This document shows positions 18,400 to 48,300 of a DNA stretch of 64,000 nt, one piece after another (position 1 is the stretch's first letter; the number at the start of each line of letters is the position of its first letter). This DNA comes from Euglena gracilis. Its lineage: Eukaryota. The translations under genes and the position numbers were made by a program. Below the pieces are notes generated by a model that saw only the letters and a list, made by a program, of their open reading frames with translations, was not told where the DNA came from and ran no database searches. The stretch spans positions 44,681,847 to 44,745,846 of the forward strand of contig CP154954.1 of assembly GCA_039621445.1 (NCBI GenBank), read 5' to 3'.

Positions 18400-21300
18400 G
18401 CCCGTCCCGGTGGGGGCGGCGGCTTGTCGTCAGCCGCGCCGCAAGTCCCCCCCGTCCTCTGTCTCCTCCGTGGCGGGAGACTCCGAGGGGGACGTCGCCT
18501 TCAGCTTCAGCGTGGCGGGCAGGGCCGCCCCCACTGCCCACCCACCTCCCCAGCCAGCTACCTCCCCCCTGTGCGCAATGAACCCCCTTGCCCCATGAAC
18601 ACAGGGTGTCCACACTCTCAAATTTTCACCAAACACCACAACTCCAACACCCACACAACCCTCGCCCAATGAACGTGCCCCTTCTGGATCGTCCAAAGTG
18701 TCATTTTAAAGTTTGTTGGGCTTCGGGGGCCTTTTTCATAGGACGATAGCCCATTTTGCAGCGTCCCATCTGGGGGTTGGCCGTCACACCCCCATTGACC
18801 AAGCATTTTTGGATCCTTTTTTCCAAAAAAAAAAAAATGCCTGACAGCATCGACATTCTTTGAATGAGTTGTGCCCCAGAAGGGGTCCGGATAAAGAGAG
18901 TTACCCCCCCCCCCAATAGCACGACAGGCCGGCATCCGGTTTTTTCCTGTTAGTTTGGTGTTGGCAGAAAGTCCAAACGGGGCATTTCCTCCAAATTGGG
19001 CAACCCCAACCCCCGGAAGCCTGTGTCCCAACTGCCCGACGCTGAGCGTTTGTGTTGGCCCCGAAGTGCAACGCCGGCGGGGGGGGACCACTTCGGCGGA
19101 GCGGCGCCGCCCCGGGGGGGGGGGGGGCAGTGGCGGGGGCGGCCCTGGCGGGGGGCCCCCACCGCCGTCTGCTCGCCCTCAGCCTGCAGGCCCACCTTGA
19201 CGCCCGCCCCGAGGCGGTGTTTGCGAGGGACATCGCCCAGCCCCCCCCCCCCCTTGGCCCAGGCATGGGGGCGGAGGACACCCCCCACGCCCAGCCACCC
19301 CGAAGCCAGCTTCAGCCTCGGCCTTCACCCATATGCATGAGCCAGCCCTGAAAGGGGGTTGATTCAATTCCTGGGCCCCGGCGTCCGGCTCATTTGCCCC
19401 CCATGTCAATGTTCGGAAAGGTCCAAAGTCACAGACGGCGAGTGAGTGAACAGGTGGCAGGCCAGGGCTCCAGCCCCAGGGGTCCCTCCCAGCCGGGGGG
19501 GGGGGGGGGCTGGCGGCACCGGCAGCCACCCGCTGCACAGCGCGGTGGCCGCCAAGGCAGCCGACTGCGTCGCTGTCCTGGTGGACCGCCACGCCGCCCT
19601 GGACCGGCACTTCGACCCGGCAGCGCTCGTGAACGCCGCCGGCCAGAGCCCGGCCAGGCCACCCCCGGGCCGGGGAGGCCCAGTGGTTCGGGGGAGGGTC
19701 GTGTGCAGCACAGCCATGCACTGTACCAGCAGTCGCCTTGCATACTTTTCGACGTCCGCCCAAATGCAAGCTTGAACATTTTTTCCCGAAAATTCACCCA
19801 CGCATGACCCCCCCCCCCGGGACCCAGGGACCAGGGGTTGACCCCCCTGGCGGGAGGTCAACCCCCTGCATCAGGGCGGCATTTAAACCCCCTCCCCCGG
19901 GGTTGTCCAGCTCGAGGCTGGAAAGTTTGGGCTGGCTGGAAAAGGTTGCTGACTAACCCCCCCATGGGGGTCCCCGGCTGGAATTGGGCCAGGACCCAAT
20001 CAAAACTGCAAAAATGCCCCCCCCAAAAACTGCCAATTATGCAAAAATCAGTTTTTGGCCCAAGATTTGCCTTAGCCAGCCCTCCGGCTTCAGTGATGAT
20101 TTGCCCCCTACCAAAAGCCACCAAAAATCCACCGAAACCCATTGAAAAATTTTCCTGGCCCAGCCTTCGGTCTTATGCAAGCCTCTGGAGCATGTGGCAG
20201 ATTTTCCACGCAGACATTTCCCCCGTGAGAATTTCTGGCTGAATTCCCCATCCACATTTTTGGGGGGACGGGTATTTGTGGTCATTGACAGCCGGGCTTT
20301 CCAAACACCCGAGGCCTGCAGCACAAAAGATCACTTTTCCCACGTCTCCTGCTGTCCCATTTCTCTCAGCCAGTGAGGCTCGCCTCCCATGCCACACCGG
20401 GATGACGGGACACTCGGGAGCCTCCGTTCACGTGAATTGTTCCCCAGAAACGGTCTTTCCCCGAGCGTCTTTCCCCGAGCGTCAACGAAAACAACAGCAG
20501 CCCCCCAACGTTTGTTCGCCAAGAACTGCCCGCTCGTGGCGACGTTGATGGTCGTTGGGCCGGGGCCCCCTTCAGGCCATGGGTGGCCTGGGCCCGCTGG
20601 ACCTGGCGGCGGGGCACGAGGGCTGCCGCGCGGCCCTCGCCCTCTGGCGGCCGCCCCCCGCGCCGCTCGCCGTGGTCCGTCCGCAGCGGGCGAAGACCGG
20701 CGCGCTGCTCTTCGACCTCACCGCCTCCCCGCTGGTGGACGACCCCCCGGGCCCCCACGCTGGGGCTTGCCCCCCCCCCCGACCACAGCACCACTTTGGA
20801 CCCCAATGGGATCAGGCACAGTGCTGGGGGCCGGCCAGAGACAGCGCTCGCCCAGCCAGCGCAGCCCAGGTCGTGCAGCGTAGTAGGGCAGACCTCACCA
20901 CACACACACACACACACACACACACACACACACACACACACACACACACACATACGTTGGGGGCCCGCCGCCAGCCATTCGTCCGGTCGGGCGGCACGCT
21001 CTCCAAGCTCATCGCGGGGCTCCTGCAGGCGGACGCCGCCTTCCTCGTGCAGAACCGGCCGTACGCGGATTGGCTGTGGAGCCCAGCGCCCCGGCCCCGG
21101 TGCTGATGGCACTGGTTGGCCACCCACGCCACGCATTGCACAGGGGCCACCCCCCACACGGTCGATTGCATGATTTTGGCCTGTTTCTGGTTTAACTCCT
21201 GTTGGTGTGGGTGGGTGGGTGATGTGGTGTGTGTGCGCTTTCTGTGGGGGGCGGTAACATTATCGGAATTTGCAGTTCAATTATTTTTTGTCTTATAATC

Positions 21301-45300: not shown

Positions 45301-48300
45301 CTCACCCACCCACCCACCCACCCACCCACACACACACACACACACACACAACCACAAACACACACACACACACACAACCACAAACACACACACACACACA
45401 CACACACACACAACACACACACACACACACACAACCACAAACACACACACAACACACACACATATACAGTAGGGGACATAAATAGTGGGACGCTCCGTCG
45501 GACATAAATAGTGGGACACCTAAAATTTTTTGGGGGACAGACATTTTTGTGAGCTGCGAAGTTGTTGAGGACCCAGATATAACCAAGGTGTTTCAAGTTG
45601 CCGCACGTATAACGGTTGCCCTGCACCACCCAACGGATGGCGAAGGGCTGTGGGGGTGCAAATTAATAGCGCATGGGGCCTCCATGAGCCTCGAGCAGGC
45701 GGCTGGGCATCAATGCATACAAGACACGAATTTCCGTCGGCGTGATTTCAGAAAACGCGCGCTGCGGGGCTGCTCAGGGGTCATTCTGGTTCGCAAACAC
45801 GCAGCCGTCGAGCTTGCGGAGGGCAACGGGCCACAGATGCCCAACTGGGTTGAGGTCGGGGCTCATCGGTGGCCAGAAACAGACCTCATTTTCTCCCATG
45901 GTGGCAGGTCAACGGAAATCAACGTGCCAGGGTATTCGTTTTATGGATTGAATTGAGTTGTGGCGCATATTCTTGCAAGCACCCAAACACACACGCGTGC
46001 ACGCATTTCTCTGGATGCCGTTTCAAAGATTTCCATCTTTCACAAATCTGACATACCTGGGCTTATTGAAGCGCAGGGCGCTTGCCAGGATTCCTTGGTA
46101 CCCCTTGGCAATCATCCTGTCCTGGCAAGCGCCCTGCGCTTCATTGTCAGATTTGTGAAAGATGAAAAGATGGGGTCGGTAAAAAATTGTATGGCCCCGA
46201 CCTCAACCCAGTTGGGCATCTGTGGCCCGTTGCCCTCCGCAAGCTCGACGGCTGCGTGTTTGCGAACCAGAATGACCCCCGAGCAGCCCCGCAGCGTGCG
46301 TTTTCTGAAATCACGCCGACGGAAATTCGTGTCTTGTATGCATTGATGCCCAGCCGCCTTGCTGCTGTGCTCGAGGCTCATGGAGGCCCCATGCGCTATT
46401 AATTTGCACCCCCACAGCCCTTCGCCATCCGTTGGGTGGTGCAGGGCAACCGTTATACGTGCGGCAACTTGAAACACCTTGGTTATATCTGGGTCCTCAA
46501 CAACTTCGCAGCTCACAAAAATGTCTGTCCCCAAAAAAATTTAGGTGTCCCACTATTTATGTCCGACGGAGCGTCCCACTATTTATGTCCCCTACTGTAC
46601 AGTAGAACCAGCTGTGTACACGCAACTGGCCATTTTGGGGAACGAGGTGGGTCCTCCCCCAAACAATGATACCCCACGGTTGGGTTCAAATCCTCCAAGG
46701 CAGGGCGGCGGGGCCCTGGCCGGGGCAGTGGGACAAGGCGCTGGAGGCGTACCGGCGGGCGCTGCAGCTGCACGCCGCGGCGGGCGGGGCGGCGCTGGAG
46801 GGGCGGGAGGGGGCCCTCTACCACCGCATGGCGAGCCTCTTCCAGAAGCAGGGCCACCGCCGCCGGGCCCTCGAGCTCTACGGTCGCTCCCGTACCCTGA
46901 AGGAGACCGCCGTGGGGCCCGCCGAGGCCGTCGGGGGACCTCCAAGGGACGGTGCCATCCTCACACCCCCACGGAATTGCGTGTCTGTCTGCGTGTGGGT
47001 TTGTTGGTGTGGCAGTTTTGGCGGTTTGAGTTTTGAGAGTGTGGCAGTTTTGGCAGTTTTGGCGGTTTCCCTTGTGCCCTTTCAAAATGGGTGGTGTCAC
47101 GTGAAGTTGTTTGCCATGAGGCTGGGCTGCAGTCGGCAGTCCAACCGACAGCCACCCACTCCCGTGTTCTGGCCTCCGTTTCGGGGTTCCCCATCACAGG
47201 TCTCCACCCAAGGCTTTACGGTTCAAGCATCCAGATTTGATCCAACTATCCCCACAATAAGCTTGGGGGAGGGGAATGCCCTCATTTGGGCAGCAGCCCC
47301 CCAATGGTTTGAAGGTCGTCGGCGAAATCACAGGTCGCGCATTTTTTTCCGACGGGTTGACAAAACGCATCCGCTTTTATCACTTGATCCTTGTGTTTCA
47401 TCGGAAGCCCCCCCCCCCAGGCCTCCCGCCAACGCCCCGGTCGTCGGGGCCATCGCGTACTCGATGGGGCAGCTGTACCACGCGGAGCGGCAGTTCCCGG
47501 AGGCGCTGGCCGCGTTCCACCAGGTGCTGACCGTGAAGGACATCCCGCCGGGCCCCGTCTGCCCACGGCAACCGCTGGCATAGACCGGCTCTGTCCAGGT
47601 CTGGCCCTCACCGATCTCCCTCTCTCCCTGAAGGCCCATCCTGTTGGGGTTGCCGGGTCGGCCGGGGAGCAGCCCAGGGTTCGATAGAAGGAGGGCGTAC
47701 ACGGTTTAGGTGGGGGGGTCCCCCCAACCCCCCCTCCTGGCCCGCAGGGGGGGTCCGGACCCCCCCCCGTCTTTATATCAAACCCTGGAGCAGCCTGCGG
47801 TGCTGTGGCCCCACATGCGGATGGCAGCGGTGTACAGCGCGCTGGGCGACCACGCAGCGCAGAGACCAGTTCGTCCAAAACCCAACCTTCGCCATGCAAC
47901 AGAGTGGGCAACAATTGCAGCGGACTGAAATTTTTTAAAGTTACCAAATTTTATCATAATCATATTTTTACATCTTTGGAGGTTGTTCATGTTCGGGACT
48001 GGCCGCTGGGGGCTGATGCGATTGAGATCAGGCTTCTTTTTAAGTCACCAGACCCCCCTCCCCCCGGGGGAAGGGGGCGGGGGGGTGGGTCCGGGCCGGC
48101 CCCCCGGGGGGGGGGGGGGGGTGTCCCGCACCGGAGGCGCTGGGTATACCTTTTCGGCGCGAAGCGCCGAAATTTTTTGATTAATTAATAATTAACAGGC
48201 CCGATTTTGGGGGGGGGGTCCCCGCCCCCCCCCCGCGCCACCCTGGGTGGGTGGGGGGGACCCCCCCCCGAGGGTCTTAAAAGAAGCCTGAGTGAGATGT

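Follow-up and report, generated by a model that had tools for sequence, protein, structure and literature searches.

Octamer likeness at the borders of 24 nonconventional introns in a Euglena gracilis gene: candidate target-site duplications of MITE-like insertions

The 24 nonconventional introns of a single Euglena gracilis gene carry similar octamers at their two borders. The gene is located in a stretch of 64,000 nt (assembly GCA_039621445.1, contig CP154954.1, forward-strand positions 44,681,847 to 44,745,846), which we call the window and by whose numbering all positions are given. The likeness of the flanks is real, it is specific for one register, and it is restricted to the 8 nt outside of the helix into which the intron ends pair. 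Its best explanation, which we hold to be moderately probable, is that the octamers are partly decayed 8-bp target-site duplications of insertions which resembled MITEs (miniature inverted-repeat transposable elements).

The original prediction for this DNA, given for the interval 18512..46726, concerned six introns, which it took as older MITE-derived introns with a graded decay of their target-site duplications. This interval falls within one gene of about 34 kb. Each of the six positions marks the canonical first base of one of its introns, in the order 2, 15, 16, 4, 3, and 17, all on the + strand like the other introns of the gene. The six octamer pairs are present as described. Intron 2 (18517..19152, 636 nt) has CAG..CTG motifs and the flanks GTGGCGGG (18512-18519) and GCGGGGGG (19148-19155), identical at 6 of 8 positions. 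The same score is reached by intron 15 (42263..45117, 2,855 nt; GGGCCGGC/GGGGCAGC) and intron 16 (45241..46723, 1,483 nt; GCTGGGCC/GCCGGGGC, the latter ending at 46726), both CAG..CTG. Intron 4 (19652..20595, 944 nt, CAG..CTG; AGCCCGGC/GGCCCGCT) scores 5/8, intron 3 (19235..19517, 283 nt, CAG..CTG; ACATCGCC/GCGGCACC) 4/8, and intron 17 (46921..47430, 510 nt; GGCCCGCC/CCGCCAAC), which has a GAG..CTC variant, 3/8. The terminal helices of introns 2, 3, 4, 15, 16, and 17 measure 13, 21, 10, 6, 6, and 6 bp, in agreement with the predicted stems of about 6-20 bp; in the DNA they take the form of inverted repeats.

Flank identity at the intron borders

A flank score is the number of identical positions among 8, when the upstream octamer (5 exon and 3 intron nucleotides) is compared with the downstream octamer (5 intron and 3 exon nucleotides). 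The octamer frame was placed by the terminal helix, not by the likeness of the flanks. The compared bases are fixed by intron length; thus, the choice among the borders of a slidable intron merely moves the 8-nt frame. As a null, left and right flanks were re-paired among introns in 50,000 permutations, a procedure which retains composition and border consensus. The sample comprises the 24 introns of this one gene.

True pairs exceed re-paired ones in every subset. For all 24 introns the mean score is 4.25 against 3.14 (sd 0.23) after re-pairing, a value reached in 0/50,000 permutations. Without intron 20, the best-scoring one, the remaining 23 average 4.13 vs. 3.24 (10/50,000). The six introns named above average 5.0 vs. 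3.78 (555/50,000), and the 18 introns which had not been named 4.0 vs. 3.0 (30/50,000) or, minus intron 20, 3.82 vs. 3.12 (407/50,000). The excess is present in the 11 introns confirmed by RNA (4.36 vs. 3.22; 110/50,000) and in the 13 introns mapped by protein (4.15 vs. 3.34; 550/50,000). The caution that high G+C inflates chance matches was justified, as re-paired flanks already agree at 3.1-3.8 of 8 positions on average.

The excess belongs to one register. When the downstream octamer is shifted from -12 to +12, with the local composition retained, the true register is the highest of 25, and the runners-up have means of 3.58 and 3.25. At positions -5 to +2 the fractions of matches are 0.50, 0.42, 0.54, 0.62, 0.50, 0.71, 0.29, and 0.67, the re-paired expectations being 0.31, 0.35, 0.35, 0.35, 0.41, 0.52, 0.26, and 0.55. 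Outside of the octamer no excess is observed: positions -8 to -6 match in 15/72 cases (expected fraction 0.29) and +3 to +5 in 20/72 (expected 0.24). The outer positions -5 to -3 match in 35/72 cases against an expected 0.336 (p 0.006). The perfect run at the junction averages 2.08 nt compared to 1.41 nt in cross-pairs; beyond this run and its two bounding mismatches 54/99 positions match where 37.0 are expected (z 3.6). Whether the helix continues into the flanks was tested as well. Outward pairs number 2.88 vs. 3.32, i.e., there is no excess, and the likeness is direct, not complementary. Five of the 24 introns score 6/8 or better where 0.96 are expected (binomial p 0.002).

The gene, its introns and their splicing code

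The coding part of the gene (17532..51670, + strand) has 25 exons and 24 nonconventional introns according to protein mapping, RNA joints and Pfam. It corresponds to the EukProt entry EG_transcript_3304 (our P0001, 813 aa), which was retrieved via the translated exon 19446-19772 with 85% identity over the exon part. Pfam assigns the protein to TPR_12 (E 1.4e-45), and weak ankyrin matches are located toward the N-terminus. Exact 5-mer chaining and junction enumeration place residues 1-810 in 25 blocks between 17532 and 51667 (+ strand). A few residue differences (N/S, A/T) between EG_transcript_3304 and the window translation occur at residue 76 and in the stretch KAGALLF near residue 150, and the junction mapping has one mismatch each at introns 3, 4, 5, 9, and 10; probably these are strain or allele differences.

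For introns 1-13 the support consists of this protein-to-genome mapping of a transcript-derived protein. The RNA evidence comprises contigs from three runs and the raw reads of one run (X21) for the region 32300-52299. Its joints cover introns 15-24 and are seen in the raw reads of X21 and in the contigs of all three runs, except that two of the runs have the last joint: 42261>45117 (4 runs), 45238>46722 (slide 3), 46918>47429 (slide 2), 47560>47813, 47857>48293 (with ATGCGAT in between), 48361>49448, 49594>49915, 49987>51054, and 51194>51584. The end of exon 14 is read by a loose RNA end before 42181 (3 runs). Exons 14 to 25 are connected, and several joints are carried together on single RNA contigs of 2.3 kb.

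All 24 introns are ordinary euglenid nonconventional introns. GT-AG or GC-AG borders are found in 0/24, at any position compatible with protein or RNA. In 15/24 a compatible register places CA at +4,+5 and TG at -7,-6. In 19/24 introns an uninterrupted helix of 5 bp or more begins at +4/-6, and in 23/24 the following exon opens with a purine. The splicing code N3-CDG...CH'G-N5-6/R, to which 61.2% of the nonconventional introns of E. agilis conform (Nomura et al., 2025, PMC12501133), is satisfied in full by 15/24 (62%). These include five of the six introns named above, the exception being intron 17. Seven of the remaining nine have paired variants as read by eye (CAA..TTG twice, CAC..GTG twice, GAG..CTC, CGC..GCG, and CGC..GTG); introns 9 and 24, also read by eye, have irregular motifs. 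Both flanks share a border consensus, C as the last upstream base, then G or R, and C two further on.

Mutation showed the length of the code's 3-nt and 5-nt spacers to be critical, and their letters are given as N (PMC12501133). The same paper counts 84.4% of the introns of E. agilis as slidable, a group which was excluded when the code was derived. Synthetic introns which consisted only of CAG/CTG, 3- and 5-nt spacers, the purine and the helix are reported to have been spliced like wild type. Nonconventional introns are excised as circles, without a lariat or U1 pairing (cited in PMC11282704). The introns described here share border, helix, purine and slidability with those reported earlier from euglenids (Milanowski et al., 2014, PMC3935182; 2016, PMC4770533; PMC12501133). 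They do not differ in kind and are further members of the class, in a gene absent from the literature covered.

The other introns of the 5' half are as follows. Intron 1 (17584..18431, 848 nt) has the CAA..TTG variant and the flanks AGCCCACG/TCGTCAGC, which score 2/8. Intron 5 (20745..20972, 228 nt, CGG..CCG) scores 4/8, intron 6 (21081..21549, 469 nt, CAG..CTG, not slidable) 2/8, intron 7 (21647..21765, 119 nt, CGG..CTG) 6/8, and intron 8 (21842..22159, 318 nt, CAG..CTG) 4/8. Intron 9 (22217..22909, 693 nt) is irregularly spaced, with a border certain to within 1-2 nt, and scores 3/8. Intron 10 (23006..23668, 663 nt, CAA..TTG variant) scores 5/8, intron 11 (23731..24516, 786 nt, CGC..GTG variant) 4/8, intron 12 (24590..24710, 121 nt, CAG..CTG) 5/8, intron 13 (24882..25389, 508 nt, CGG..CCG) 4/8, and the repeat-rich intron 14 (25480..42180, 16,701 nt, CAC..GTG variant) 5/8.

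Introns 15, 16, and 17 and all introns downstream are confirmed by RNA joints. Intron 18 (47561..47812, 252 nt, CAC..GTG variant) is not slidable and scores 2/8. Intron 19 (47857..48014, 158 nt, CAG..CTG) has a 6-nt 3' spacer and scores 3/8. Intron 20 (48026..48295, 270 nt), a MITE with its spacers, scores 7/8 and is described below. Intron 21 (48362..49447, 1,086 nt, CAG..CTG) scores 5/8, intron 22 (49595..49914, 320 nt, CGC..GCG variant) 4/8, and intron 23 (49988..51053, 1,066 nt, CAG..CTG, 14-bp helix) 3/8. Intron 24 (51195..51583, 389 nt) has an irregular register, scores 4/8 and contains at 51511-51554 a relative of the end of the intron 20 element.

Several introns contain long (CA)n/(TG)n microsatellites (20890-20960, 21930-22030, 45330-45470), and so does the flanking DNA (1150-3300, 55300-55500, 57900-58600, 62990-63170); these dominated an unfiltered blastn.

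Mobile elements in the window and the interiors of the introns

The mobile DNA of this window includes short elements whose ends read CAGG... and which have 8-bp duplications; intron 20, one such element, is spliced by the rule of 3 + 5 nt. The window was scanned for perfect inverted 10-mers which start with CA and are 60-3000 nt apart. Among 97 candidates two have 8/8 flanks and intron 20 is third with 7/8, whereas shifted-flank controls average about 2 of 8. The first element (9361..9813, + strand) has 12-bp perfect ends CAGGGATAGATG of the type CAGGG... and a perfect 8-bp duplication CCCTGCAC. The second (13970..14393, + strand) has 16-bp perfect ends CAGGGAATTTCTTAAG, also CAGGG..., and the perfect 8-bp duplication GTCCGAGG.

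Intron 20 consists of a MITE core (48029-48290) and 3 + 5 nt. Its inverted ends of about 16 bp are CAGGCTTCTTTTTAAG/CTTAAAAGAAGCCTG, its flanks ATTGAGAT/AGTGAGAT. The core belongs to the family of a free-standing relative at 34343..34619 (+ strand), whose ends are of the same type and whose 8-bp duplication, GACTGGAC, is perfect. This copy lies within intron 14; consequently, splicing is not involved in its duplication. Between introns 19 and 20 a micro-exon, ATGCGAT (48016..48022, + strand), is 7 nt long by RNA (X2, X4), whereas the canonical register makes it 10 nt (48016-48025). With a micro-exon of 7-10 nt the MITE insertion adjoins intron 19, in either order: the MITE inserted at a distance of about 10 nt on the downstream side of intron 19, or intron 19 arrived upstream of the MITE.

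The interiors of the 23 introns shorter than 5 kb were compared with the window by low-complexity-filtered blastn. Membership in a multi-copy family was found for intron 20 only, within 64 kb, which make a weak test of this feature. Introns 3, 16, and 17 have no match elsewhere in the window and intron 2 has a single match of 30 nt. Introns 4 and 15 match through nested pieces only, a dispersed repeat in intron 4 and nested repeat copies in intron 15. Nested repeats or a foldback are present in introns 4, 15, and 16; part of these interiors was thus gained, whatever else may have been lost.

The foldback in intron 16 spans about 1.1 kb (about 45465-46599). Its inverted arms (71, 175, and 166 nt, all of them 99% complementary) are nested about a 331-nt center; the checked flanks agree at 3/8 with no clear duplication. 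In appearance it resembles an inverted duplication or foldback element of very young age. Intron 14 contains two copies of a long repeat (about 30400-31900 and 37900-39300) with similar translations of open reading frames in both, and intron 4 matches both copies, at 30919-31091 and 38318-38503. Repeated DNA has inflated this intron of 16.7 kb.

Raw RNA reads pile up at the long G/C runs of the element family (34398-34421, 43513-43537, 48123, 49864-49893). Many chimeric joints connect these places, and loose ends are poly-C or poly-G. Probably this is cross-mapping among many expressed repeat copies, not real splicing. Upstream of the gene a Pfam search of 121 open reading frames of at least 70 aa reported no family at E 1e-4, also for those around the MITEs at 9361-9813 and 13970-14393; it was not a search aimed at transposases.

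Origin of the flank likeness

The register-specific excess on the one hand, and MITEs in the same window with perfect 8-bp target-site duplications, one of them spliced as intron 20, on the other, make decayed target-site duplications the best reading of the octamers. In this scenario CAG...-ended small inverted-repeat transposons would have inserted in exons, each creating an 8-bp target-site duplication. In the RNA the ends of each intron pair into a helix from +4 to -6, and the nonconventional machinery cuts 3 nt ahead of this helix and 5 nt past its end, as in the published code. The excised piece is then the helix-bounded core plus 8 nt, and removal of the element and 8 nt would restore the message as it was before the insertion. 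With the message restored such insertions would be tolerated and could become introns. Later the 3-nt and 5-nt intronic spacers, unconstrained by the code, would drift from their exonic twins. If removal of an element plus 8 nt restores the message, the fixed 3-nt and 5-nt spacers (PMC12501133) make sense. We infer that the six introns named above themselves began as such transposons.

The idea of an older MITE-derived origin thus stood in part, i.e., with respect to flank likeness above chance and the presence of MITEs in the window. A graded decay by age is not demonstrated by the data. The scores of the 24 introns have a variance of 1.93 against a binomial 1.99, which reveals no mixture of ages; with both variances equal the spread from 6/8 to 3/8 needs no age differences. 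This lack of overdispersion weighs against the proposed origin, as do several further points. Flank identity is uncorrelated with helix length (Spearman rho 0.19, n=24), with terminal duplex energy (rho -0.30, p 0.15) and with intron length (rho 0.14). The long, repeat- or foldback-bearing introns 14, 15, and 16 score 5, 6, and 6, which is not predicted if older means more decayed. Intron 3 has the best helix, yet only 4/8. Blastn against the window placed none of the six named introns, as an entire element, in a repeat family. The unmatched interiors fit the notion of lost interiors but are also predicted by a non-MITE origin, and 64 kb cannot separate the two. A single intron at 6/8 is weak evidence, as 4.0% of 552 cross-pairs reach this score.

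There are two hints, both post hoc, of an age effect. The 14 code-conforming introns with a 5-nt spacer average 4.79 vs. 3.07 in cross-pairs (0/20,000), the 10 introns with eroded or irregular motifs 3.5 vs. 3.13 (3716/20,000). The difference between the two groups has a one-sided Mann-Whitney p of 0.013, or 0.021 without intron 20, for a split that was defined after the data had been seen, which again counts against the proposal. The second hint is a paralog without intron 2. It starts at 63302 (63302..64000, + strand), about 11.6 kb downstream of the last mapped codon and in the same orientation, is 50-67% identical over residues 29-112 and continues past the window end. One exon (63302-63433, residues 29-72, 50% identity) runs uninterrupted across the site of intron 2. 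Next come an intron of about 447 nt (63437-63883, with borders deduced from frame and pairing and a register possibly off by 1-2 nt), at or adjoining the site of intron 3, and then an exon for residues 71-112. The score is 6 for intron 2 and 4 for intron 3; the intron of the paralog, with its borders so placed and read by eye, has a score of 3, in what is a single comparison. Gain of intron 2 in this gene and its loss in the paralog are indistinguishable without an outgroup.

Two other approaches to intron age gave no dated intron. A search of metagenome contigs with EG_transcript_3304 for orthologous loci returned 41 pattern matches, none of which was confirmed. Introns 15 and 16, which are 42 residues or one TPR unit apart, were considered as old shared introns and rejected, being one codon off in the repeat alignment as read by eye.

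Could the likeness arise without any common history? At about 65-75% G+C, and with a C/GNC-type consensus common to both flanks, 5-6 of 8 matches might come about by chance: 14% of the 552 cross-pairs reach a score of 5, re-paired flanks match at more than a third of their positions, and the six introns were picked from 24 by the original prediction. However, the re-pairing retains both composition and consensus and is exceeded by the true pairs in the whole set, in the 18 un-named introns and in the six; the true register is maximal among 25 shifts which retain local composition, and introns with scores of 6 or more are in clear excess. For the gene as a whole chance is disfavored, and we regard it as very improbable. 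A likeness which is maintained rather than decaying is only slightly easier to defend. Similar cut sites might be selected for tolerance of shifted cuts or because the enzyme reads both alike. The large fraction of slidable introns in E. agilis (PMC12501133) and the pyrimidine/purine pattern at both borders, here and elsewhere (PMC11282704), would agree with selection, and so would the lack of overdispersion and of any link to age proxies. Yet the cross-pair null removes the common consensus, and therefore the excess is specific to each intron. Matches extend non-contiguously to 3-5 nt from the cut, where shift tolerance does not need them, introns 6 and 18 do without any repeat, and the spacers are N in the code, in line with the splicing of the synthetic introns as reported (PMC12501133). 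Taken together, selection appears improbable.

The octamers may also be the scar of another kind of insertion, either break repair with fill-in of staggered ends or RNA-mediated re-insertion of intron circles. Break repair has been suggested for the 8-nt direct repeats that flank intron 4 of gapC, a recent gain in E. agilis ACOI 323 (PMC4770533), nonconventional introns are released as circles (cited in PMC11282704), and the six interiors without a whole element family in the window are compatible with either. On the other hand break repair predicts repeats of variable length and no fixed relation to the inverted repeats, whereas here it is precisely the 8 positions adjoining the helix that carry the excess. 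Moreover, CAGG...-ended elements with perfect 8-bp duplications are present outside of exons, and one such element is an intron. We consider these scars unlikely, though the least unlikely of the alternatives to decayed target-site duplications of MITE-like insertions.

These duplications have to be seen against what is known. A MITE origin of nonconventional introns was proposed in 2013 from inverted repeats, as a hypothesis (PMC3935182), and a 2024 review speaks of TSD-like repeats and of TIRs at the ends (PMC11282704). The calling of borders is hampered by direct repeats at the junctions (PMC3935182; PMC4770533). MITE origin and TSD-like repeats were thus already known; what is added here is that the likeness fills exactly the 8 nt of the 3-nt and 5-nt spacers. 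A link of 3 + 5 nt to an 8-bp duplication, or a measured decay, was not found in the texts of the literature searched, PMC11170887 among them, figures and supplements aside. The gapC intron 4 of E. agilis ACOI 323 is nonconventional, has an 8-nt repeat and is taken as young, and intron 20 with 7/8 is alike. The youth of the gapC intron was shown by its absence in other strains (PMC4770533), whereas that of intron 20 is inferred. Intron 20 in turn is a member of an element family with a free copy that bears a perfect 8-bp duplication.

Introners of Micromonas, Aureococcus, dinoflagellates, and Fritillaria (PMC11282704) are comparable in that DNA transposons inserted in exons are removed from the RNA and the duplication helps to define the excised piece. 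They are spliceosomal, with GT-AG or relaxed sites, whereas here the cuts would be measured from an RNA helix by other machinery and the excised piece would be the element plus one duplication length.

The elements of the window bring to mind a familiar type of transposon. hAT-like transposons have an 8-bp target-site duplication and ends of the CAG/TAG type. The elements described here are, like hAT-like MITEs, short and non-coding, with CAGG inverted ends and three free copies with perfect 8-bp duplications. The six named introns, in contrast, match no whole family in the window, and the superfamily is a matter of resemblance only.

A wider proposal, which is tentative and to our mind somewhat less probable than not, is that the 3-nt and 5-nt spacers are in general a fossil 8-bp duplication and that the machinery removes a transposon together with one duplication. 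Most nonconventional introns, a class that makes up about 70% of Euglena introns, might then be so derived, and octamer identity together with CAG/CTG erosion might serve as an age clock. The same flank test is applicable genome-wide to public intron sets, stratified by intron age. For the origin of euglenid nonconventional introns this gene provides a small quantitative test of the MITE idea. If the idea is true, nonconventional splicing would undo exon insertions at the RNA level.

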